A stretch of DNA of 64,000 nt, taken from contig CAVWSF010000001.1 in the NCBI GenBank assembly GCA_963757605.1, forward strand, positions 632,349 to 696,348, given 5' to 3'. The notes under the pieces were generated by a model, which saw only the letters and a program-made list of their open reading frames with translations, was not told the origin of the DNA and did not search any database. Below are positions 49,508 to 63,878 of this stretch, piece after piece. Position 1 is the first letter of the stretch; every line of letters starts with the position of its first letter. A program made the translations under genes and the position numbers. The stretch comes from an uncultured Actinomycetes bacterium. Its GTDB lineage: Bacteria; Actinomycetota; Thermoleophilia; Gaiellales; JAICJC01.

Positions 49508-50383
49508 ATGAGCCAGACGACGCCCGCCGCCCGCCTCTTCGGCGCCCAGAGCATGACCGCACCCCTCCACGACGTCGTCGTGAAGCGGCCGGGGCCTGCC
49601 TTCGGGGCCGCGTACGACAACCCGGTGCATGGGTTCCTGCACCCGGTCGACCTGGCCGCGGCGCAGCGCCAGCACGACGCCTTCTGCGAGGTGCTCGCCG
49701 ACCTGGGCGTGCGTGTCCACCAGCTGGACGCCGAGACCGAGAGCCCCGACCTCACCTACACCTTCGACCCGGCCCTCGTCACCGACCGCGGCATGATCGG
49801 CCTGCGGTCCGGAAAGCCCACCCGGCAGGGCGAGGCGGCGCCGCTCCTCGAGTGGGCAGCCGGGCACGACATCCCCGTCATCGGCGCGCTGGGCGAGGGC
49901 GAGACGGCCGACGGCGGCGACACGTTCTGGCTGCGGCCCGACGTCTTCTGCATCGGCCGGTCGCTTCGCACCAACCGGGCCGGCGCGGCCCGCCTGACCG
50001 AGCTCGTGGGCGGCGAGGTGCACGTCTTCGACGTCCCCTACGGGAACGGCCCGGCCGAGTGCCTGCACCTGCTCTCGGTCATCTCGCCGATCGCCGACGA
50101 TCTGGCCGTCGTCTTCCTCCCACAGCTCCCCGTCGGCCTCTACGAGCTGCTCGGCGAGCGCTGCGTGGCGCTCGTCCCGGTGCCCGAGGAGGAGATCGTG
50201 AGCCAGGGCTGCAACATCCTGGCCGTGCGGCCCGGCGTGGTCGTCATGGTCGAGGGCAACCCGGTCACTCAGCGCGGGCTCCTCGACCGCGGCTGCGAGG
50301 TGCACACGTTCCCCGGCACCGAGGTGTGCGTGAACGGCTCAGGCGGCCCGACCTGCATCACCCGCCCGATCCTTCGGGGATGA
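49508..50383 (+). CDS. Amidinotransferase/DDAH/arginine-deiminase superfamily hydrolase
   Basis: QHDAF, TFDP, DGGD, LHL and C-terminal GGPTC. Confidence 0.88.
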   Translation: MSQTTPAARLFGAQSMTAPLHDVVVKRPGPAFGAAYDNPVHGFLHPVDLAAAQRQHDAFCEVLADLGVRVHQLDAETESPDLTYTFDPALVTDRGMIGLRSGKPTRQGEAAPLLEWAAGHDIPVIGALGEGETADGGDTFWLRPDVFCIGRSLRTNRAGAARLTELVGGEVHVFDVPYGNGPAECLHLLSVISPIADDLAVVFLPQLPVGLYELLGERCVALVPVPEEEIVSQGCNILAVRPGVVVMVEGNPVTQRGLLDRGCEVHTFPGTEVCVNGSGGPTCITRPILRG

Positions 50384-51642
50384 AGAATCTGACCCCGGCC
50401 GAGCTGGCCGCCGTCGGGGCCGTGGATCGCGACCGCATCGCCGCCGATCTGGCGGCCGTCGTGGCGCACCCCAGCCTGACCGGCTCGGAGGGCGAGGTGC
50501 AGACCGAGATGGCCCTGCGGATGACGACGGCCGGCCTGGAGGTCGAGCGGGTCGACGTGGCGGCGGCCGATCTGGCCTCCGACCCCGACTTCCCCGGCGT
50601 CGAGGTGGCGCGCGACTCGCACCCGGTCGTGGCCGGCCGGATCGGCGATGGCGGCAGCGGCCGGCGGGCGATCGTCGCCGGCCACGTGGACGTCGTCGGC
50701 GGAGGAGACGAGCTGCAGTGGACGTCGCCGCCGTTCGAGCCGCGGATCGCCGACGGCCTGCTCTTCGGCCGCGGGGCGTGCGACATGAAGGCGGGCGTCG
50801 TCGCGGGCCTGGCGGCGATGCGGGCGCTCGTCGAGTCGGAGGCCGAGCTGGGCGGCGAGGCGATCCTGCTCACCGTTCCGGGCGAGGAGGACGGCGGCGC
50901 CGGGATGCTCGCGGCGATCCGGGCGGGGTACGCGGGCGGCTTGGCGGTCATCACCGAGCCGACCGACCTCCAGATCGTGACCGCCCAGGCCGGCGCGATC
51001 ACGTTCACGCTCACGATCGAGGGCCGAAGCGCGCACGCCGCGTTCCGGCGCGAGGGCGTCTCGGCCGTCGAGAAGCTGTGGCCGGTCATGCGCGCGCTCG
51101 AGGCGAACGAGCGCGAGCGAAACGAGGCCGAGACCATGCGCGCGATGCGCGAGACGGGGCTTCCCTACCCGACGTCGATCGGCCGCGTGAGCGCCGGCGA
51201 GTGGTCGTCGACCGTCCCCGACCGGCTCGTCGCCGAGGGCCGCTACGGCGTGCGGGTCGGCCAGACGGTGGCGGAGGCCGAGGCCGAGCTGCGCGCGGTC
51301 GTCTCGGAGGGGTGCGCGGCCGACGAGTGGCTGCGCGACCACCCGGCGACCGTCGAGATCACGGGCGGCCGGTTCGCCTCGGCGTCCGTCGCGAACGACC
51401 ACCCGCTCTCGTGGGGCCTCGCCGAGACGGCCCGCGATGTCCTCGGCAAGCTGCCCGACTTCCTGGGCGTCCCCTATGGGGCCGACGCGCGCCTCCTGAT
51501 CGACCACGGCGCGACGCCGACCGTGCTCTACGGCCCGGGCGACCCCAACCTGGCACACGCTCCGGACGAGCACGTCGCGCTCGAGGACGTCGCCCGCTGC
51601 GCCCGCGTGCTGGCGGTGTGGCTCATGCGCGCGCTCGCCTGA
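50380..51642 (+). CDS. ArgE/DapE family M20 deacylase
   Basis: GHVD, GRGACDMK, EEDGG, EP and AHAPDEH; ATGA overlap. Confidence 0.92.
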   Translation: MKNLTPAELAAVGAVDRDRIAADLAAVVAHPSLTGSEGEVQTEMALRMTTAGLEVERVDVAAADLASDPDFPGVEVARDSHPVVAGRIGDGGSGRRAIVAGHVDVVGGGDELQWTSPPFEPRIADGLLFGRGACDMKAGVVAGLAAMRALVESEAELGGEAILLTVPGEEDGGAGMLAAIRAGYAGGLAVITEPTDLQIVTAQAGAITFTLTIEGRSAHAAFRREGVSAVEKLWPVMRALEANERERNEAETMRAMRETGLPYPTSIGRVSAGEWSSTVPDRLVAEGRYGVRVGQTVAEAEAELRAVVSEGCAADEWLRDHPATVEITGGRFASASVANDHPLSWGLAETARDVLGKLPDFLGVPYGADARLLIDHGATPTVLYGPGDPNLAHAPDEHVALEDVARCARVLAVWLMRALA

Positions 51643-53361: not shown

Positions 53362-54435
53362 TCACGCCCTTGCGCTCGGCCCGTATGTCAGATGCAGCAG
53401 ATCGCCCTCGGCGAACCGCGAGAACCGCAGCGGATGCAGGTCGATCGGCGGCTCGCGCCCGGCCAGCTCCGCCGCGACGCACTCCGCGATCGCGGGCGCC
53501 AGCTTCAGCCCGTGGCCGGACATGCCGGCAATCGCGTAGACGCCGTCGCGGACGACCCCGACGACCGGGTTCCAGTCGGGCGTGGAGTCGTACGCGCCGG
53601 TCCAGCCGTCGACCCACGCCGCCTCGCCACCACGCAGGTAGCGCGCGGCGAGCGCCTGGGCGACCGACGCGCGATAGGAATCCTCGGGGAGATCGGGCGC
53701 CTCGTCGCGGTCGGCGTAGCCCTCCGGCTCGCGGTAGGCGACCGCCCACGCCATGTCCCCCACATGCGGCCGCACGACCACGTTCGTGACCGTGTCCGAG
53801 ACGACGACAGATACCCGAAGCGGCCGCACGCGGGCCACGTCGATCCGCTTGAGCGCGATCGGGAGGTCGGGGAGCAGGCGCGACGTCCACCCGCCCGCAG
53901 CGACGACGACCGTGTCGGCGTCGAGCGCATCCAGGTCGGTTACCTCCGCGCCGAGCCGGGGCTGGACGCCGAGCGAGAGCGCCTCGGCGAACCAGGCGAG
54001 CGTCATACGGCCGGGGTCGACGAGGCCGCCGTCCGGCTCGTGCGCCGCGGCCGCGATCCCGTCGGTGCGAAGCGCGGGCTCGACGGTGGCGACCTGCTCC
54101 GGGTCGAGCAGGCGCGAGTCGACGCCGAGCGAGCGGCCCAGCTCGACGTTCCGAGCGCAGGCGTCCCGGTCACGCTCGGCCACCGACAGCATGTACCCGG
54201 TGCGGACGTACCCCGAGCGCCGGTCGCCGGCGAGCAGCTCGATCCCCCGCTTCGCCAGCCGTACGGTCACCTCGTTGGAGTAGTGCGCCCGCACCATCCC
54301 GAAGGAGCGCCCGGTATCGCCCGCCCCGGGCGTCGCCTTCTCGTAGAGCGCGACGCTCATCCCCTCCCGTGCCAGCGCGACGGCCAGCGACGAGCCGAAG
54401 AGCCCCGCCCCGACGATCGCGACGTCCGCCCTCAT
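53362..54435 (-). CDS. FAD-dependent oxidoreductase, DAO/sarcosine-oxidase family
   Basis: VAIVGAG, TGRSFG, TPDWNPVVG and SGHGLKLAP. Confidence 0.9.
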   Translation of the reverse strand: MRADVAIVGAGLFGSSLAVALAREGMSVALYEKATPGAGDTGRSFGMVRAHYSNEVTVRLAKRGIELLAGDRRSGYVRTGYMLSVAERDRDACARNVELGRSLGVDSRLLDPEQVATVEPALRTDGIAAAAHEPDGGLVDPGRMTLAWFAEALSLGVQPRLGAEVTDLDALDADTVVVAAGGWTSRLLPDLPIALKRIDVARVRPLRVSVVVSDTVTNVVVRPHVGDMAWAVAYREPEGYADRDEAPDLPEDSYRASVAQALAARYLRGGEAAWVDGWTGAYDSTPDWNPVVGVVRDGVYAIAGMSGHGLKLAPAIAECVAAELAGREPPIDLHPLRFSRFAEGDLLHLTYGPSARA

Positions 54436-55205
54436 GCGGGCGTCGTGTAGGCCGCGGTGATCCCGCCGTCGACGACGAGCGCCTGCCCGGTCGTCCAGGC
54501 CGACTCGTCGCTCGCCAGGTAGAGGACGGCGCCCGCGATGTCCTCGAACGCGCCCAGCCGCCCCATCGGGATGTGCACCATCCGCCGCTCCAGGCCACCC
54601 TCGTCGCCGGCGAGCGCGTTTCGGAAGAGCGGTGTGTCGACCGGCCCCGGGCAGAGCGCGTTGCAGCGGATGCCGCTCCGCGCGTACGTGATCGCGACCT
54701 CGCGCGTCATCGCGAGGACGCCGCCCTTGGCCGCGGCATAGGCGGTCTGCGGCGTCGCCGACCCGATCAGCGCCACCATCGAGCTCATGTTGACGATCGA
54801 GCCGCCGCCCGTCTCGAGCATGTGCGGCAGCTGGTACTTCATGCAGAGGAAGACGCCCGTCAGGTCGACGGCGAGGATCCGGTGCCAGACGTCGAGCTCG
54901 GTCGCGGGCGGATCGGTGTCGTCGGGGAGCAGGATGCCCGCGTTGTTGTGGCAGACGTCGACCGACCCGAACCGGTCGCGCACCGCGGCGTAGAGCGCCT
55001 CGACCGACCGCGGGTCGGTCACGTCGACCGCGAACGGCGCCGACCCGGGGATCTCGGCCGCCGCCCGCTCGGCGCCCGCGGCGTCGATGTCGGCCAGGGC
55101 GACCCGGCCGCCCTCCTCGGCCAGCCTGCCGGCGACCGCCCGGCCGATGCCCGCGGCGGCGCCCGTCACGACGCACACCCTGTCCTGCACTCGACCCTGC
55201 ATCAC
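54432..55205 (-). CDS. Short-chain dehydrogenase/reductase
   Basis: TGAAAGIG, NNAG, YAAAK and PG. Confidence 0.93.
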   Translation of the reverse strand: MMQGRVQDRVCVVTGAAAGIGRAVAGRLAEEGGRVALADIDAAGAERAAAEIPGSAPFAVDVTDPRSVEALYAAVRDRFGSVDVCHNNAGILLPDDTDPPATELDVWHRILAVDLTGVFLCMKYQLPHMLETGGGSIVNMSSMVALIGSATPQTAYAAAKGGVLAMTREVAITYARSGIRCNALCPGPVDTPLFRNALAGDEGGLERRMVHIPMGRLGAFEDIAGAVLYLASDESAWTTGQALVVDGGITAAYTTPA

Positions 55206-55264: not shown

Positions 55265-56839
55265 CTAGAGACCCTCGTTGATCATGCGCCCGATGGTCTC
55301 GTACTTGGCCCGATCCGCGCCCTTCAGGTAGACCGCGTATGCGTAGCCACCGACGAAGACGATGACGTCGATCGCCACCAGATACCACGCGTACGTGTAT
55401 CCCGCGCCGAGGAAGTCGATCTTGTCGATGGCCACGAACAGCACCGCCAGCTGGCCGATCACCGAGATGAGCGGTGCGATCGTGTGGTTCCAGAGCCGGT
55501 GCTCGGTCGGGTGGTGCGTCCGGAAGTAGTTCCAGATCGCCACCGAGACGAGCGCCTGGATGAACAGGATCAGGACGACGCCCATGAACGCCATCAGGCC
55601 GTAGAGCTGCGTGTAGGCGATCGACGTCGCGGCGTCCGACTTCGCGGCGACGGTCGCGAACAGCGCGAACGCGATGACGATCAGCGCCGCGATGACCGAC
55701 TGGGTCGTCGAGGCGATGTGCGGGCTCTTGTGCCGCTCGTGTGTGCGGCCGAGCTGGTGCGGCAGCACCTTCTCACGGCCCAGCGAGTAGAAGTAGCGGG
55801 CCGCGGTGTTGTGGAAGGCCATGCCGCACGCGAACGCGCCCGTGATGATCAGATAGCTCATCACGTCGCTCAGGAACTGATTCCCGAACTCCTTCGCCGG
55901 GGTCAGGTAGAACTGGGCGGGAGTTCCGACCGCCACGACGGCCGCAGCCGCAGTCGAGGAGTACGCCGAGAGCGCCGCCCACGAGGTGATCGTGTAGAAG
56001 ATCCCGAGGCCGACGACCGAGATGTACATCGCCCGCGGCACGATCCGCTTGGGATCCTTCGACTCCTCGCCGTAGTTCGGCGCCATCTCGAAGCCGACCC
56101 ACGACCAGAACGCAAAGAACACTCCGACCGCCCACGCGCCCGCGGCCACCGCCGAGCTGCCGTGTCCGGAGGCCGGGAGATCCGAGAACGCGTTCAGCGG
56201 GTTGATGGCGCCGGCCTGGATGTTCTCCCCGCCCTGGGCGAAGACGACCAGGTCGAAGATCAGGAGCGCGAGGACCTCGGTGATGAGGGCGAGGCCCAGG
56301 ACGCGGGCCGAGATGTGGACGTCGAAGTACGCCAGCACGGAGATCAGCACGACCATGAACAGCGCCGGCCAGTACCACGCCACATGGTGGCCGTACTGGT
56401 CGAGCTTGGCCGTCGCGAAGAACGCGAAGCCTCCGCACAGCGACGCCTCGAACACCGAGTACGCGACCACCATGGCGAACCCCGCCGCCATGCCCAGCTC
56501 GCGGCTGAGGCCGTGGCTGATGAAGCTGTAGAACCCGCCGACCGCGGTGACCTTGCGGGCCATCGCGACGAACCCGACGGAGAAGATTGTGAGGATGACG
56601 GTGGCGAAGGCGAAGCCGGCCGGGGTGCCGAGACCGTTGCCGTAGCCGACCGAGAGCGGGGTATTGAAGAGCATCGCCGAGATTGGCGCTGACCCCGTCA
56701 CGGTGAGGAACAGGACTCCGAGGAGCCCGACCGCGCCCCCGTGCAGCTTGTGCACGTCTGTGCGCTGGGAAACGTCGACACTCTCCACAGGGATCATCCC
56801 CTCGTGGCGGGTGCTCATGCCCCCGTGCTCACTGTCCAC
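55265..56839 (-). CDS. APC family amine/amino acid permease
   Basis: GSAPIS, GGFYSFI, GFEMAPNYGEE and HNTAARY; about 12 TM; GGAGG RBS. Confidence 0.92.
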   Translation of the reverse strand: MDSEHGGMSTRHEGMIPVESVDVSQRTDVHKLHGGAVGLLGVLFLTVTGSAPISAMLFNTPLSVGYGNGLGTPAGFAFATVILTIFSVGFVAMARKVTAVGGFYSFISHGLSRELGMAAGFAMVVAYSVFEASLCGGFAFFATAKLDQYGHHVAWYWPALFMVVLISVLAYFDVHISARVLGLALITEVLALLIFDLVVFAQGGENIQAGAINPLNAFSDLPASGHGSSAVAAGAWAVGVFFAFWSWVGFEMAPNYGEESKDPKRIVPRAMYISVVGLGIFYTITSWAALSAYSSTAAAAVVAVGTPAQFYLTPAKEFGNQFLSDVMSYLIITGAFACGMAFHNTAARYFYSLGREKVLPHQLGRTHERHKSPHIASTTQSVIAALIVIAFALFATVAAKSDAATSIAYTQLYGLMAFMGVVLILFIQALVSVAIWNYFRTHHPTEHRLWNHTIAPLISVIGQLAVLFVAIDKIDFLGAGYTYAWYLVAIDVIVFVGGYAYAVYLKGADRAKYETIGRMINEGL

Positions 56840-56941: not shown

Positions 56942-57397
56942 TCAGGCCGGGACGGGATTGCGCGCGGGAGTCGCAGCCTGCGAATCGGCGAGCGCCTCGA
57001 CGAGCATCCGCTCGACGACCTGCCGCCACTCACCGGTGCGGATTTCGACCTTGTCGGGCAGGATCCTGCGCGGCGTGCGGTCGGCGTGATGCCGCTTGGC
57101 GAGCCGGTCGAAGGCGCCGATCGCGTTCAGGACCGTCGCGTGCCCGCGCGAGCCGACGAGCGATCCGATCCAGTCTCCCGGCCGGCCCTCGTCGCGGAAG
57201 ACGCCCTCGCGGACACCCTGCCAGTAGGCATGCTGGAAGAGACAGCCCGCGACGCCGTGGTCCGTCCAGCAGCCGGCCGTGACCTCGGCCTCGCCGCGGT
57301 CGATCCCGCGCAGCGCCAGCTGCAGCAGGCGGCGCCCTCTGTCGTTCCCGGCGAGCTCATGCAGCTCGCCCCGCAGCTCACGTTCCTCGGCGGTCAT
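56942..57397 (-). CDS. Hypothetical protein with a Cys/His motif
   Basis: GGAGG RBS; GCW...GCLFQHAYW; 12 nt downstream of the ligase stop. Confidence 0.7.
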   Translation of the reverse strand: MTAEERELRGELHELAGNDRGRRLLQLALRGIDRGEAEVTAGCWTDHGVAGCLFQHAYWQGVREGVFRDEGRPGDWIGSLVGSRGHATVLNAIGAFDRLAKRHHADRTPRRILPDKVEIRTGEWRQVVERMLVEALADSQAATPARNPVPA

Positions 57398-57409
57398 GCG
57401 CAACCTCCC

Positions 57410-58744
57410 TCAGAAGACCTCGGTGTACTCCTGCCGCTCCCAGTCGGTGACGTGGTCGTCGAATCGTTGCAGTTCGTACCTGCGCATCGTGGTGTACGCG
57501 GTTACGAAGTCCTGGCCGAGCGCGTCGACCAGCTTCGGGTCGGTCTCGAGCGCGTCGAGTCCCTCGCGCACCGACGTGGGGAGCGGCTCCTTCGACGGGT
57601 CCTCCTCGGCCGGCGCGTTCGCCGCGGGCTCGAGCTCGAGCTCCTCCTCGATCCCGTTCAGCCCGGCTGCCAGCATCGCCGCGCCGACCAGATACGGGTT
57701 CGAGAGCGCGGTCGGCGCCCGGTTCTCGATGTGGCGATTCGACGCCGAGCCGCTCTTGATCCGCAGGAACGCGGTGCGGTCCTCGGTGCCCCACGAGATG
57801 TTCGTGGGGCTGAACGTGTGCGTCCGGCGTCGCTTCAGGCAGTTCACCGTCGGCGCAAGCAGCGTGTAGATCCCGCGCGCGTGCCGGATCTGGCCCGCCA
57901 TGAACTGGCGGCAGAGGCCGGACGTGCCCTCCGGGTCGGAGTCGTCGCCGAACACGTTCTCGCCGCCGTCCAGGCTCGTCAGGCTGACGTGCGCGTGGCA
58001 GCCAGAGCCGGCGCCGTCGGCGAACGGCTTCGACATGAACGTCGCGTTCAGGCCGTGCGCATGGGCGATCTCCTTCGTCGCGTTCTTGAACGAGAAGGCA
58101 TTGTCGGGGCCCGCCAGCCCGGCCCCGGGCCGGAAGTTGATCTCCCACTGCGAGCCGGCGTACTCGCAGTTGGCGGTGATGATCTCGATCCCGAACGCGT
58201 TCATGTGGTCGATCAGCTCGGTGATCATGGGGACGAACGTGTTCCGGACGGGGTTGAAGATCTGGTAGCCCGTGAAGAGCGGCGTCCCGTCGAGGTGCAG
58301 GACGTAGAACTCGGGCTCGAAGCCGAGTACCGGCTCGAAGCCCATCTCGCGGCAGCGCTCGAGCTGACGGCGGAAGACGTAGCGCGGCAGCGCCCTGAGC
58401 GGCTCGCCGCCGACGAACTGCGAGTCGCAGATGAAGCGGGCGGTGGCCTCGGCCCACGGCACCACCGCGGCCGTCTCGGGATCCGGCATCAGCCGCTGAT
58501 CGCCGTAGCCGATCTCCTCGTGGTAGAGCGTGCCGGGGACGACGTCCGAGCGCGAGTCCAGCACCGCCGCCCCGCCGTACATGTTGAGCCCCTCCTCGCA
58601 GTAGCCGGCGGCCTGCGCGATCGGCACGATCTTGGTGCGGCTCGTGCCGTGCATGTCGGGGAGCTCGAAGCGGACGTAGCGGATGCCGTCGCCGCGCCAG
58701 ATCTCGATGGTGTCCAGCGTCGAGGCGGTGGCGGTCTTTGCCAT
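57410..58744 (-). CDS. Glutamine synthetase family, probable gamma-glutamyl-amine ligase
   Basis: FEPEFY, EYAGSQWEIN, ATFMSKP, GSGCHAH, ENR and NPYL; lacks DGSS and has TFSP in place of the GYEAP flap. Confidence 0.88.
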   Translation of the reverse strand: MAKTATASTLDTIEIWRGDGIRYVRFELPDMHGTSRTKIVPIAQAAGYCEEGLNMYGGAAVLDSRSDVVPGTLYHEEIGYGDQRLMPDPETAAVVPWAEATARFICDSQFVGGEPLRALPRYVFRRQLERCREMGFEPVLGFEPEFYVLHLDGTPLFTGYQIFNPVRNTFVPMITELIDHMNAFGIEIITANCEYAGSQWEINFRPGAGLAGPDNAFSFKNATKEIAHAHGLNATFMSKPFADGAGSGCHAHVSLTSLDGGENVFGDDSDPEGTSGLCRQFMAGQIRHARGIYTLLAPTVNCLKRRRTHTFSPTNISWGTEDRTAFLRIKSGSASNRHIENRAPTALSNPYLVGAAMLAAGLNGIEEELELEPAANAPAEEDPSKEPLPTSVREGLDALETDPKLVDALGQDFVTAYTTMRRYELQRFDDHVTDWERQEYTEVF

Positions 58745-59535
58745 CAGGTGGTTCCCTCCGGATCCGGTGTGCCGTTGTGCCAATGACGAAGCTCGAAGCC
58801 GTCGCCCTCCAGCCGCTCGCGCAGGGCGGCCCCCCGGGCCGAGCCGATCACGGCGAGCACGCCGCCCTCGTGGCCGTCGTCGCGGCGAAGCGACGCGGCG
58901 ACCCGGTCGGGCGGCTGGAGGTGGTGGCCGGCGATGCCGAGCTCCTGGTAGGTGTCGCGGACGACGACCAGGTCGGCCGCCGGCCCGCGCACGAGCGCCG
59001 CGAAGTTCACGAAGTGGCCGACGTCCCAGTCGGCCGGCGGCGGCTCCACGGCCTCGCCGCGCAGGTGGGCGAGGACGATGGCCGGGCCGGGGCGCGAGCC
59101 CCAGAACAGCCCGGTGCGGACGTTGGCGACGAGGGTCGCGTCGGCCGCAGCGTCCATGAGGGCCGTCACGGTCTCGGCCGTCCACGGGCCGGCGACCGGG
59201 ATCGCGGCGAGCCGGCCGCCAGCCAGCCGCTCGATCGCCCGCGCGACCCCCGGCGCCGAGGTGCCGCCCACGCCCGGGGTCGGGTCGACCGCGAGCTCGA
59301 CGCGATAGTCGTTTCGGGGCGTCGCGCCGGGCGCGACGTGGGTCTGCGGGTCGCCACCGGGGAGGATGGCGCCGGCCGCGGCCGCGACCTCGTCCTGGTC
59401 GACGTCGACGCCGGCGGCGCGCAGGACGAGCGAGCCCCAGAAGCAGCCGCAGAGGTTGTCCTTCTGCTGCCGTTCGGCGGCGTACAGGTCGGCAAGCCCC
59501 TGCTGGCGGGCGGCGGTGACGCTGGCTCCGGCCAC
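58744..59535 (-). CDS. Uncharacterised protein with a papain/phytochelatin-synthase-like Cys-His-Asp arrangement
   Basis: QQKDNLCG, VGHFV and LVVVRD; its stop overlaps the ligase ATG; TATGCT -10 6 nt upstream. Confidence 0.7.
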   Translation of the reverse strand: MAGASVTAARQQGLADLYAAERQQKDNLCGCFWGSLVLRAAGVDVDQDEVAAAAGAILPGGDPQTHVAPGATPRNDYRVELAVDPTPGVGGTSAPGVARAIERLAGGRLAAIPVAGPWTAETVTALMDAAADATLVANVRTGLFWGSRPGPAIVLAHLRGEAVEPPPADWDVGHFVNFAALVRGPAADLVVVRDTYQELGIAGHHLQPPDRVAASLRRDDGHEGGVLAVIGSARGAALRERLEGDGFELRHWHNGTPDPEGTT

Positions 59536-59550
59536 AGCGTGAGCATATGC

Positions 59551-59702: not shown

Positions 59703-60749
59703 ATGCGAGCGGCGATCTGGAATGGGCCGGGCGAGATGGAGCTCGGTGTGGTGCCCGACGCGACCTGCCCGGCCGACGGCGCGCTGCTTCGCGTCGTCGC
59801 CTGCGGCATCTGCGGCACCGACGTCCGCACCTTCTACAACGGCGACCGCCGCATCGAGCCCGGCGCAGTGCTCGGCCACGAGATCTGCGGCGAGGTGCTC
59901 GAGGTCGGGCCCGACGCCGACGGCGACCTGCGCGCGACGACCGGCGACCTCGTCCACGTGATCTCGACGCTCTACTGCGGAGCCTGCACGCTCTGCCGCA
60001 CGGGAAACGAGCACCTGTGCCAGCACGGCGGGCTCATGGGGTTCGACTACCAGGGCGCCTACGCGGAGCTGGTCGCCATCCCCCACGTCGCGCTCAAGAA
60101 CATCTTCGTCATCCCCGAGGGCCTCGACGCCGTCCACGCCACGTTCGCCGACCCGCTCTCGGACGCGATCTGCGGGCACAAGGACCTCGAGGTGGGCCTC
60201 GACCTGCGGGCGGTGGTGATCGGGGCCGGCCCCGTCGGCACGGCCCACGTCGCGCTCGCCCTGGCCCAGGGCGCCGGCACCGTCTACCTGCTCGAGACCG
60301 AGGCCCGCCGGCTCGAGCTCGCCCACACCGTGCTCCAGGACGACCGCGTCCGCTACGTCGACACGTCCGCCGTCGACCCGGTCGAGCACATCCGCTCCGA
60401 CACCGGCGACGGCGCCGAGCGGGTCATCGTCGCGTGCTCGAACGCCCGCGCCCAGGAGCAGGCCATGGAGATGGCGGCGCCGCGCGGGCGCGTCCTCTTC
60501 TTCGGCGGGCTCCCCAAGGGCACGACCACGATCGACTTCCCGTCGAACGTCCTGCACTACCGCGAGGTGGCCGTGCTGGGAAGCTACGCCTCGCGCTACC
60601 GCGACCAGGTGCAGGCGCTCGACATGCTCGAGCAGAACACCGCGAACATCCGCGGCGTCGTGACCGACGTCGTCTCGCTCGACGAGACGCCCGAGGCGTT
60701 CCCGCGCATCCGAAGCGGCGCCGCGCTGAAGGTCGTCGTTACGCCGTAG
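59703..60749 (+). CDS. Zinc-dependent polyol/alcohol dehydrogenase (sorbitol DH-like)
   Basis: CGTD, GHE, CGACTLC...C and GAGPVG. Confidence 0.92.
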   Translation: MRAAIWNGPGEMELGVVPDATCPADGALLRVVACGICGTDVRTFYNGDRRIEPGAVLGHEICGEVLEVGPDADGDLRATTGDLVHVISTLYCGACTLCRTGNEHLCQHGGLMGFDYQGAYAELVAIPHVALKNIFVIPEGLDAVHATFADPLSDAICGHKDLEVGLDLRAVVIGAGPVGTAHVALALAQGAGTVYLLETEARRLELAHTVLQDDRVRYVDTSAVDPVEHIRSDTGDGAERVIVACSNARAQEQAMEMAAPRGRVLFFGGLPKGTTTIDFPSNVLHYREVAVLGSYASRYRDQVQALDMLEQNTANIRGVVTDVVSLDETPEAFPRIRSGAALKVVVTP

Positions 60750-61569: not shown

Positions 61570-62388
61570 ATGAGCCTGGGCAAGACCATCCGGTTGAAGC
61601 GGGTCCTGAACGACCCGACGAACACGTCCGTCATCTGCGCGCTCGACCATGGGATGACGTCGCCCGTGTTCCTCGACCCGCTCGCCGACATCCGCGCGCG
61701 CGTCACCGAGGCGGTGGCCGGCGGCGCGAACGTGCTCATGCTGTCCCGGGGCATGGCCCGGATCGCCGCCGCCGAGCTGAGCCAGACGACCGCCGTCGCG
61801 TACATGCTGTCGGCGTCGGCCCATCCCGGCGAGAACCCGAGCATCGCGGCCGTGGCCGAGGTCGAGGAGGCCCTGCGCTCCGGCGCGGACGCGGTCGTCC
61901 TCTACGTGGCGCTCGGCACCGACACCGAGCAGGACATGATCGAGCGCCTGGCAGAGGTCGGCTCGGCGTGCGACGAGCTCGGCATGCCGTTCATCGCCGA
62001 GGCGGAGTGGCCGAGCGCCTACTCGGGCACGACCGCCGAGCTGGGGACCGACTACCTGCTGCGAAACGTGCGCCTGTGCGCGGAGTTGGGCGCCGACATC
62101 ATCAAGACGAACTGGCCGGGGTCGGGCGAGGAGTACGCGCGCCTCGTCGCCGCCGCGGCCGGGCTTCCGACGGTGCTCGCCGGCGGCTCGCGCATCACCG
62201 AGGCCGAGCTCCTGACGCGGCAGCAGCACGCCATGGAGGCCGGCGCCGTCGGGTGCAGCGTCGGGCGCAACATCTTCATGCACGAGAGCCCCGAGGCGAT
62301 GGCCCGCGCCCTGAAGCGCGTCATCGTCGACCGATGGACGGCAGAGCGGGCGCTGGAGGAGCTGGGGGCGGCCGCCGCCGCCCGATGA
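61570..62388 (+). CDS. Class I aldolase, DhnA/LsrF family
   Basis: ALDHG, ELGADIIKT (Schiff-base Lys), AGG and GRNIF; GGAGG RBS. Confidence 0.88.
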   Translation: MSLGKTIRLKRVLNDPTNTSVICALDHGMTSPVFLDPLADIRARVTEAVAGGANVLMLSRGMARIAAAELSQTTAVAYMLSASAHPGENPSIAAVAEVEEALRSGADAVVLYVALGTDTEQDMIERLAEVGSACDELGMPFIAEAEWPSAYSGTTAELGTDYLLRNVRLCAELGADIIKTNWPGSGEEYARLVAAAAGLPTVLAGGSRITEAELLTRQQHAMEAGAVGCSVGRNIFMHESPEAMARALKRVIVDRWTAERALEELGAAAAAR

Positions 62389-63878
62389 CCGACCCGGATC
62401 TCATCTGCGGGATCGACGTCGGCTCGCAGGGCTCGTGCCTGGCCGTCTTCGACCCGGGCGGCGAGCGGCTGGCGACCTCCTACCAGCCGCACACGCTCTC
62501 CTACCCGCGACCGGGATGGGCCGAGCAGGACCCGCGCGACTGGCGGGCGGCGGTCGTGAACGGCTTCCGCGACCTCTCGGCCCGCGTCAACCTGCGCCGG
62601 GTGCGGGCGATCTCGTTCGGGTCGCAGCTCGACGGCCTGGTCTGCGTCGACCGAAACGGCCAGCCGGCCGGGCCGGCGATCATCTGGATGGACCGCCGCG
62701 CCGACCCGCTCTGCCGGGCGGCCGAGGAGCGGATCGGGCCAGACGAGTGGTACGCCCGCTCGGGGTGCAACCTCGACGGCTCGCACGTCGCGGCCAAGAT
62801 CGCCTGGGTGGCGCGCGAGCGCCCGGACCAGGACGCGCGCACCGACCGCTACCTCCTCCCCGGCGCCTACATGGTGCGGGTGGCCTGCGACGCCGACGCC
62901 GTCGACCGCTCGAACGCGTCGTCGACCATGGCGCTCGACCCGGACTCGGGCGAGTGGGACGAGCGCCTTCTGGCGGCGTTCGGGATCGATGCAGGGCGGC
63001 TGCCGCCGGTCATCGGTGCGGACGAGCCGGTCGGCGAGATCACGGCCGGGTTCGCGGCCAACACCGGCCTTCCGCCCGACACGACCGTCGTGTGCGGCTG
63101 CGGCGACGAGATGGCCGCGACGCTCGGGGCGGGGCTCGTGGAGCCGGGCATGGTCTGCGACGTCCTGGGGACGGCCGAGCCGGTGTGCGCGGTGGCCGAC
63201 CGGCCCCTTCGCGACGCCACCCGGATCGCGGAGTGCCATCCCCACGCCGCCCCCGGCCGCTGGCTGCTCGAGAACCCGGGCTGGGCCTCCGGCGCGTCCT
63301 ACCGCTGGTTCCGCGACCAGCTCGGCGGCGGGCTCGACTACGAGGGCCTGAACGCGCTGGCCGCCGAGGCGCCGGCGGGGGCGGACGGCCTGGTCTTCCT
63401 GCCCTGGATGGGCGGCGCGATGGCGCCGCGCTGGGAGGCGGAGGCGCGCGGCGGCTGGTACGGGCTCACCCCCGCCCACGGCCTGGCGCACTTGGCGCGG
63501 GCGCTGCTCGAGGGCTCGGCCTACGCGCTTCGCGACGTGGTCGAGGCGATCGCGGACGCCGGCCTGGAGCCGTCGCAGATCGTGTGCGTCGCCGGCGGGG
63601 CGCGCTCGCCGCTCGTGCGCCAGATGCGAGCCGACGCGACCGGCGTACCCGTCACCTGGTCTGAGGACGTCGAGACCACCGCTCGCGGCGCGGCGATGCT
63701 TGCCGCCTCCGGGTCGGGGCTCCATCCCTCGACGGCCGCGGCGGCGGAAGCCATGTCGCGGATCGCGACCCAGACGCACCAGCCGGACCCGGCCGGCGCC
63801 GAGGCGTCTGCGGACGGCCACCGCCGCTACCGGCTGATCTTCGAAGCGCTCGCCGACCGGTTCGGGGAGCTGGCGTGA
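62385..63878 (+). CDS. FGGY family carbohydrate kinase (xylulokinase-like)
   Basis: GIDVGS, GWAEQDP, WMDRR, CGD, LEG and GGARS; ATGA overlap. Confidence 0.92.
   Translation: MTDPDLICGIDVGSQGSCLAVFDPGGERLATSYQPHTLSYPRPGWAEQDPRDWRAAVVNGFRDLSARVNLRRVRAISFGSQLDGLVCVDRNGQPAGPAIIWMDRRADPLCRAAEERIGPDEWYARSGCNLDGSHVAAKIAWVARERPDQDARTDRYLLPGAYMVRVACDADAVDRSNASSTMALDPDSGEWDERLLAAFGIDAGRLPPVIGADEPVGEITAGFAANTGLPPDTTVVCGCGDEMAATLGAGLVEPGMVCDVLGTAEPVCAVADRPLRDATRIAECHPHAAPGRWLLENPGWASGASYRWFRDQLGGGLDYEGLNALAAEAPAGADGLVFLPWMGGAMAPRWEAEARGGWYGLTPAHGLAHLARALLEGSAYALRDVVEAIADAGLEPSQIVCVAGGARSPLVRQMRADATGVPVTWSEDVETTARGAAMLAASGSGLHPSTAAAAEAMSRIATQTHQPDPAGAEASADGHRRYRLIFEALADRFGELA

Follow-up and report, generated by a model that had tools for sequence, protein, structure and literature searches.

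A 64,000-nucleotide stretch of contig CAVWSF010000001.1 from an uncultured soil bacterium of the order Gaiellales (hereafter, the window) carries on its minus strand a gene for a DUF6885 protein, whose stop codon overlaps the start of a gene related to glutamine synthetase (GS). This DUF6885-ligase pair is real, conserved and, as far as we searched, undescribed. The GS-like gene likely encodes a gamma-glutamyl-amine ligase, and its partner is predicted to be a cysteine enzyme of the papain fold (clan CA). Judging from gene context, we consider it on balance probable that the DUF6885 protein hydrolyzes gamma-glutamyl amides, in a role like that of PuuD but with a different fold. Since the logic of gamma-glutamylation pathways is already known, the pair would be a new part in a known scheme and not a new scheme. 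The two genes are as follows.

58744..59535, minus strand: DUF6885 (PF21819) protein of 263 residues with a GTG start, the first gene of the run, assigned from its open reading frame and Pfam match
57410..58744, minus strand: GS-like protein of 444 residues (PF00120), a probable gamma-glutamyl-amine ligase of an unnamed subfamily

The TGA of the DUF6885 gene (58746-58744) and the ATG of the ligase gene have one base in common, in the TGATG at 58742-58746, which bears out the overlap described in an earlier reading of the DNA made without database searches (the sequence-only reading). Short contigs bridged this junction in three of four RNA-library runs, which contained just 5-10% of the sequence words, and these contigs speak neither to strand nor to a single transcript. 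The G+C content of the region (67-75%) resembles that of its surroundings, and a promoter and terminator scan of the region gave no signal above shuffles.

The 263-residue protein matched PF21819 from position 5 to 250 of the 251-position model, with an E value of 1.8e-74 and 250.5 bits against a gathering cut-off of 27. It matched no NCBIfam name, and PF21819 was its only family at E up to 0.01; neither phytochelatin synthase (PF05023) nor peptidase C39 (PF03412, PF13529) was matched at that threshold, and the PuuD-type family Peptidase C26 (PF07722) gave no match. Hydropathy revealed no stretch resembling a signal peptide or a membrane segment. Searching the PDB by sequence with the protein or the family profile returned nothing significant, the profile having no match at E up to 10. 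An AlphaFold2 model was then built from 68 sequences (predicted local distance difference test, 94.3; predicted template modeling score, 0.92), and papain-like enzymes occupied the top rows when it was submitted to Foldseek. With VIA-align, the P210 CD lyase (Z 15.1) and the phytochelatin synthase Alr0975 (Z 14.4-14.9, root-mean-square deviation of 2.7 with 168 aligned) were tied in first place, followed by the PeiR endoisopeptidase (Z 13.7-13.8) and C39 domains (Z 12.6), these top matches sharing 13-21% identity with the DUF6885 protein. Its language-model neighbors in the Atlas were phytochelatin-synthase and C39 clusters, phytochelatin synthases being the nearest outside DUF6885 (0.94). Structure prediction, Foldseek and VIA-align thus agree on a papain-like fold near C39 and phytochelatin synthase enzymes, as the sequence-only reading had proposed from the order of motifs.

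A profile search of 1.84 billion representatives recovered 395 DUF6885 proteins at E 0.001 (395 clusters at 50% identity), whose named members include Prauserella, Actinocorallia and Salinarchaeum, an organism being named in 4 of the 20 clusters looked up. Residue conservation was counted in the 78 near-full-length relatives (24-56% identity) among the best 150 of the 395, the other 72 being partial and therefore dropped. In the protein itself, the motifs QQKDNLCG (residues 23-30), LVAN (135), GHFV (173) and DLVVVRD (188) were all found in their expected places; RRDDGHEGGVL is present at 217 but is not terminal, as had been stated, with 36 residues still to come. The predicted active-site residues are listed below.

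59449..59451, minus strand: Cys29, predicted nucleophile, which opens helix 29-40 (74/78 relatives)
59464..59466, minus strand: Gln24, predicted oxyanion-hole residue (77/78)
59014..59016, minus strand: His174, predicted catalytic base, in WDVGHF (75/78)
58954..58956, minus strand: Asp194, predicted third triad residue, in RDTY (Asp in 73/78, Glu in 4/78)

Conservation of the Cys, His and Asp, on which the sequence-only reading had staked its prediction, therefore held across these relatives. The same reading had described a Q23-x5-C29 motif, the letters of which are present; however, Q23 is kept in only 10 of the 78 distant relatives, so the oxyanion Gln is likely Q24 and the spacing of the family Q-x4-C. 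The order of the residues is that of clan CA, with the Gln followed by Cys29 at the start of its helix, H174 in strand 173-183 and D194 after strand 188-193, and, going by the fold, the triad residues are probably co-located in three dimensions.

The peptidase domains of PCAT and ComA, the pseudomurein endoisopeptidase PeiR and the P210 CD lyase (22oc) have the same fold (Z 12.6-15.1), and, according to entry titles, these C39-like enzymes act on leader peptides or cell walls. DUF6885 proteins differ from them in that they stand alone, without export signals, in amine-catabolic loci. Alr0975 (NsPCS; MEROPS C83, PF05023; PDB 2bu3, 6th5) likewise has the papain-like fold and the same Gln-Cys-His-Asp order, but it is 15% identical to the DUF6885 protein, which has no PF05023 match, Q-x4-C spacing, no R-F-K-Y after the Asp and about 60 extra residues. 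In AtPCS1, the corresponding residues are Gln50/Cys56, Asp180, Arg183, Phe184, Lys185 and Tyr186 (PMC3855540). Classification of the DUF6885 protein as a phytochelatin synthase (C83) by sequence was rejected, given the missing PF05023 match, Q24-x4-C29 and D194-T-Y-Q-E.

The ligase belongs to PF00120, yet it falls under every NCBIfam cut-off: 236.5 against 429.15 for canonical GlnA (TIGR00653), 270.2 against 469.6 for GmaS (TIGR03105) and 235 against 650 for gamma-glutamylputrescine synthetase (NF045547). As claimed earlier, it has no DGSS, with MYGGA at 55-59 instead, and it has Phe at the Glu flap (TFSP at 310), F311 aligning to E327 of E. coli GlnA.

57812..57814, minus strand: Phe311, which takes the place of the flap residue Glu327 and is unchanged in 24 members of the subfamily

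Compared with E. coli GlnA and PuuA, its ammonium site is lost (Gly for Asp50, Phe311 for Glu327, Ala245 for Asn264). Its glutamate, metal and ATP residues are retained, which fits the earlier typing of the protein as an amine ligase, and E143, E145, E194, E201, H250, R305, R323, R328 and E340 are kept in all ten aligned GS-family sequences. The position of Tyr179 is ambiguous, corresponding to Y160 in one alignment and to Q161 in another. Roles of the numbered residues follow in part PMC6529630; according to the same source, GlnA4, a gamma-glutamylethanolamide synthetase, also has Phe at the flap (F331). In a quickly built tree of 43 GS-like proteins, the ligase grouped with its orthologues in a clade with good support, separate from PuuA and from GmaS-like and GlnA3-like sequences. 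This genome carries a DGSS-bearing GlnA elsewhere, together with at least 8 further GS-like genes. A complex prediction of the ligase with the DUF6885 protein scored 0.00 and carries no weight for or against an interaction.

The co-occurrence of the two families was evaluated in 148 DUF6885 loci: 36 came from named genome contigs, 30 from searches of genomes, 80 from metagenome contigs (the top 80 among 528) and 2 from plasmids; one weak 37th contig hit without a DUF6885 match was dropped, and 18 loci were too short to judge, leaving 130 informative. A GS-like gene lay within 300 bp in 100 of these and within 1.5 kb in 1, and none was nearby in 29. Because some genomes are counted twice and two lineages dominate, the proteins were clustered at 65% identity, and GS-adjacent members were found in 20 of 21 informative clusters, in line with the co-occurrence that the sequence-only reading had called for. 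Among loci with a downstream ligase, 47 of 95 have a start/stop overlap of 1 or 4 nucleotides, counted from the nearest in-frame start codon with starts unverified. Single linkage at 50% identity placed the adjacent ligases in 7 of 20 clusters, and they lie upstream or downstream of DUF6885. On the tree of GS-like proteins, the label "adjacent" changes 9 times, at least 7 of which are forced by strong branches; since the tree is a quick one, we claim no order of events. Conversely, 34 of 301 genomes of the order (this one included) matched the ligase, and DUF6885 was directly upstream in 21 of the 29 orthologue loci fetched. The distribution of DUF6885 is patchy: it was present in 8 of 401 genomes from the phylum, in 5 of 301 from the class and in 23 of 104 from family f20, which belongs to another class of the phylum and in which DUF6885 often stands between two different ligases. 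On plasmids of Haladaptatus halobius and H. caseinilyticus, DUF6885 overlaps the stop codon of a gene annotated as gamma-glutamylputrescine synthetase, and an M20 peptidase follows; the one Haladaptatus ligase checked, of glnA2 type, is above the NF045547 cut-off. This recalls the glutamate-putrescine ligase GlnA-2 of Haloferax mediterranei, with the difference that the characterized gene lies between transporter genes (PMC8394153) and that the ligase of the window, under the same cut-off, is of another subfamily. As a separate observation, one island (L052; G287:C4:343000-361000) contains DUF6885 with four GS-like genes, two class I glutamine amidotransferases (GATases), two class III aminotransferases, an amidohydrolase, an acetamidase and an aldolase/dehydrogenase/kinase trio.

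Around the pair, the following genes were identified; the hypothetical protein and the permease lie downstream on the same strand, as the sequence-only reading had them.

56942..57397, minus strand: hypothetical protein of 151 residues without known family or fold match (C43, C52 and H56 invariant)
55265..56839, minus strand: APC-family amino acid/amine permease (PF00324, PF13520)
54432..55205, minus strand: short-chain dehydrogenase/reductase (SDR), with synteny kept in close relatives
53362..54435, minus strand: FAD-dependent oxidoreductase of the DAO family, whose gene overlaps the stop codon of the SDR gene; a candidate for the amine oxidation step
59703..60749, plus strand: Zn-dependent alcohol dehydrogenase, divergent from the run
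61570..63878, plus strand: DhnA/DeoC-type aldolase and FGGY kinase; an aldehyde dehydrogenase gene and genes for microcompartment shell proteins follow past the window end

In the route that we favor, an amine would be imported by the APC permease and joined to glutamate by the ligase at the expense of ATP, giving a gamma-glutamyl amide. The SDR, the DAO-family oxidoreductase and the aldehyde dehydrogenase would oxidize the carbon chain of the glutamyl-protected amine, after which Cys29 of the DUF6885 protein would attack the amide to form a glutamyl thioester, the hydrolysis of which would release glutamate. As one family is tied to many ligases, it probably recognizes what their products share, namely, the gamma-glutamyl group. 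The shell genes, dehydrogenases, kinase and aldolase nearby suggest a substrate processed via an aldehyde, and an amino alcohol or amino polyol is our best guess for the amine of the ligase.

The pairs PuuA/PuuD (putrescine use in E. coli), PauA/PauD, GlnA3/SCO6961 and GlnA4/SCO1615 have in common with this locus a GS-like ligase without the D50/E327 site (PMC9397018 and PMC6529630), an adjoining candidate amide hydrolase, a permease and oxidoreductases. Their partner, however, is a class I GATase, an amidohydrolase or a formylglutamate amidohydrolase, whereas here it has a predicted papain fold, and PuuA is 29% identical to the ligase of the window, which forms its own clade. Trypanothione and glutathionylspermidine synthetase-amidases couple a papain-like amidase to an ATP-dependent C-N ligase that makes an amine amide (PMC2427367), and trypanothione synthetase-amidase thereby offers a precedent for a papain-fold amidase undoing the amide of a ligase. 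Those enzymes differ in having a fused ATP-grasp ligase, a CHAP-type amidase and a glycyl-spermidine bond, whereas here the ligase has the GS fold and a gene of its own, and the bond is likely gamma-glutamyl. Gamma-glutamylation is a widespread route of amine catabolism, and for many GS-like ligases, the haloarchaeal pathway included, removal of the tag has no assigned enzyme. Were the hydrolase reading true, a whole unnamed family would gain a function, and the papain fold would gain a small-molecule gamma-glutamyl amidase, a new enzyme fold in amine breakdown. In the literature searched, which left most subscription papers outside, no paper names DUF6885; listings and the beginnings of abstracts gave no description of a pair of papain-fold enzyme and GS-like ligase or of its microcompartment link, a point on which the supplements of a papain classification (PMC10318531) and of a microcompartment catalogue (PMC8217296) could bear.

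No PuuD-type gene was found within 5 kb of the pair in any of the 28 wide loci (those flanked by 3 kb or more on each side), and in a held-out control, a profile built without them recovered four PuuD-type genes beside another ligase. The suggestion that DUF6885 acts in place of PuuD is thus true at the locus but not genome-wide. This genome has three PF07722 genes, and a PuuD-type gene occurs in 99 of 104 f20 genomes, including 23 of 23 with DUF6885 (the 104 and the 99 include six unpublished genomes, G682, G318 and G728-G731; the 23 do not), so that a genome-wide replacement of PuuD was ruled out. Nor are GS-like ligases always paired with PuuD, as had been assumed, since amidohydrolases and others fill this slot both in PMC9397018 and in this genome. 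Here, the gene beside each GS paralogue differs, being PuuD, Ntn (N-terminal nucleophile) amidotransferase-like, amidohydrolase, MgsABC-like or DUF6885, labels other than PuuD having been assigned from the sequences without a family scan. A scheme of one hydrolase per ligase agrees with this arrangement without being proven by it, as other amide hydrolases are likewise present within 5 kb at the 28 loci. Elsewhere in this genome (C5:1642538-1644825), a GS-like gene overlaps a class II (Ntn) amidotransferase-like gene whose product begins MCRLL, and an SDR gene follows.

Several observations weigh against a gamma-glutamyl-amide hydrolase. The loci are not independent, most coming from two lineages; 29 of the 130 informative loci have no GS-like gene nearby, and 8 of the 29 ligase orthologues have no DUF6885. 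Most of the GS-less loci belong to a sister clade (support 99; L009-L018, L020-L022, L025, L030 and L055) in which DUF6885, its triad retained under purifying selection, is kept without a ligase near the same M20 and DDAH-like genes. All 13 proteins examined from this orphan clade have the complete triad and carry QMDNLCG in place of QKDNLCG, and the median ratio of nonsynonymous to synonymous substitution rates is 0.33 (77 pairs) versus 0.23 (45 pairs) in the ligase-linked clade, the pairs not being independent. Five orphan-clade genomes lack this ligase (best identity, 37-39%), and each carries 8-10 other GS-like genes. That the orphan clade keeps DUF6885 implies a use without this ligase; there, the protein may serve other ligases, act on imported amides or take a substrate of non-ligase origin. 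As for the fold, the best matches are tied at 14-15% identity. Phytochelatin synthase, the closest characterized fold, takes Gly off glutathione at the Cys-Gly bond (PMC10318531 and PMC3855540) rather than cutting a gamma-glutamyl amide, and by this analogy the fold by itself does not predict gamma-glutamyl cleavage. The earlier argument from phytochelatin synthase is consequently weaker than it was put, a phage lysin domain and PeiR scoring about equally. Finally, other enzymes could do the job: the three PF07722 genes of this genome are strong matches and one adjoins a different ligase, the 28 wide loci have an amidohydrolase (9), an M20 peptidase (8) or a GMP-synthase-like GATase (3) within 5 kb, and an MgsABC-like trio, which might use up a gamma-glutamyl amide itself, is in the same wider cluster of several relatives.

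A short element precedes the DUF6885 gene in both clades.

59542..59547, minus strand: TATGCT hexamer, 6 nucleotides before the GTG, found in 16 of 17 related loci with a spacing of 6-7 nucleotides

It is present in 3 of 4 checked loci without the ligase, and the consensus promoter scan did not find it. From its sequence and position, it is likely the -10 element of a leaderless transcript. A DDAH/amidinotransferase-like gene and an M20 deacylase gene (49508-51642, plus strand) are syntenic with DUF6885 in the ligase-linked and orphan clades alike. Apparent fusions of DUF6885 with EamA (P0354) and with a nitrilase (P0187) were not accepted, because the same genes are separate neighbors in the orphan clade; P0354 looks frameshifted, and the word-index search did not extend to longer proteins.

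Among the rival explanations, the one that survives best, although we regard it as unlikely, places DUF6885 upstream of or alongside the ligase, as an amidase or isopeptidase freeing the amine from another amide (an N-acyl amine, a small peptide or an isopeptide) for the ligase then to glutamylate. DUF6885 does come first in the run, is retained together with its upstream element in loci that no longer have the ligase and has the PeiR isopeptidase and the lysin domain among its best fold matches, and other hydrolases could take off the glutamyl tag. Such an enzyme should nevertheless track one amine, yet DUF6885 abuts seven ligase clusters on either side, and the orphan genomes have their other GS-like genes. 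The amidase-like gene near four ligase loci without DUF6885 fits either role. Alternatively, DUF6885 might be mainly a gamma-glutamyl transferase that passes a thioester-bound glutamyl group from glutamine or the ligase product to another amine, in the manner of papain-fold transglutaminases and BtrH-type acyltransferases. This is quite improbable in our view, since the catabolic neighbors (permease, oxidases and dehydrogenases) require that the tag be taken off, neither an acceptor nor a biosynthetic cluster is apparent and the prokaryotic phytochelatin synthase Alr0975 is mainly a hydrolase (PMC3855540). It does draw support from the acyl transferases of the papain fold, which include phytochelatin synthase, BtrH and Tgl (PMC10318531), from the position between two ligases, which would suit a glutamyl relay, and from the conserved non-triad residues N138, W170, Y196, Q207, R218 and W252, which could form a second site.

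We give little credence to an Alr0975-like activity, in which DUF6885 would recognize a gamma-glutamyl dipeptide and cleave the peptide bond that follows it (gamma-Glu-X|Y), as in thiols resembling glutathione. Alr0975 is a tied best structural match and phytochelatin synthases are the nearest neighbors in the Atlas, but the family match and Q-x5-C spacing are missing, the sequence from the triad Asp onward reads D-T-Y-Q-E and lacks the Arg183-Phe184-Lys185 required by phytochelatin synthase (PMC3855540), and glutathione genes were not seen beside DUF6885. It is equally hard to credit that DUF6885, instead of acting on small molecules, cleaves proteins or serves to regulate or assemble the ligase, despite the frequent gene overlaps and the C39 peptidase domains that match the fold, given that the partner ligases are less than 50% identical to one another and lie on either side and that the orphan clade has no partner ligase.

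An extension of the hydrolase reading can be offered tentatively, as a possibility that, taken as a whole, falls well short of probable. DUF6885 would be a general papain-fold gamma-glutamyl amidase or transamidase, repeatedly recruited by unrelated ligases in bacteria and archaea, and in Gaiellales it would close an undescribed microcompartment-linked route of glutamylation, oxidation and cleavage of amino alcohols, the tagged amino-aldehyde being handled in a protein shell and then untagged. Genes for the Zn-dehydrogenase (also in further genera and a different class), an FGGY kinase, an aldolase, an aldehyde dehydrogenase and microcompartment shell proteins recur around the ligase subfamily, and its wider clusters often include the MgsABC-like trio and also LutABC-like genes. 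In this genome, some 2.7 kb separate the window end from the first of the shell genes (region C1:694000-704000). In four genomes (L208-L211; G765, G834, G787 and G824), the ligase is within a shell-gene operon and directly flanked by a shell gene; these loci have no DUF6885, and an amidase-like gene is nearby (PF01425 confirmed for one). Microcompartment loci of this kind possibly represent an uncatalogued amine metabolosome. Microcompartment loci with ligase orthologues were also seen to contain EutN/CcmL genes, a DUF3830 protein and an aldehyde dehydrogenase.

The sequence-only reading had noted the 151-residue protein after the pair for its Cys/His motif. It travels with the permease, preceding the APC permease gene in most loci read. 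In three genomes, 14-24 kb lie between it and the ligase, and it occurs in 55 of 301 genomes of the order, including genomes without the ligase, so that membership in the pair was ruled out. It has 836 relatives, and its C43, C52 and H56 are invariant and may form a metal site. No Pfam family was matched, and its mostly helical model (predicted local distance difference test, 83) gave a best Z of 4.9 in the fold search and no Foldseek hit at E 0.001; an Atlas search with a stored homologue returned unnamed clusters only. In two loci (L251 and L252), the 151-residue protein is beside a microcompartment locus with an SDR and an APH kinase, which we take to resemble an aminoacetone-type locus, and in another (L028) it is near diol dehydratase genes. 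A protein of about 223 residues without a Pfam match, which begins with an EFIFMLTRDD motif (L248:4508-5182, L229, L231 and L251-L253), repeatedly lies between the Zn-dehydrogenase and the pair formed by the 151-residue protein and the permease, and is absent from the locus of the window. A 430-residue protein without a Pfam match at the threshold used (C1:701982-703274) recurs near such clusters (L027, L029, L032, L251 and L252).

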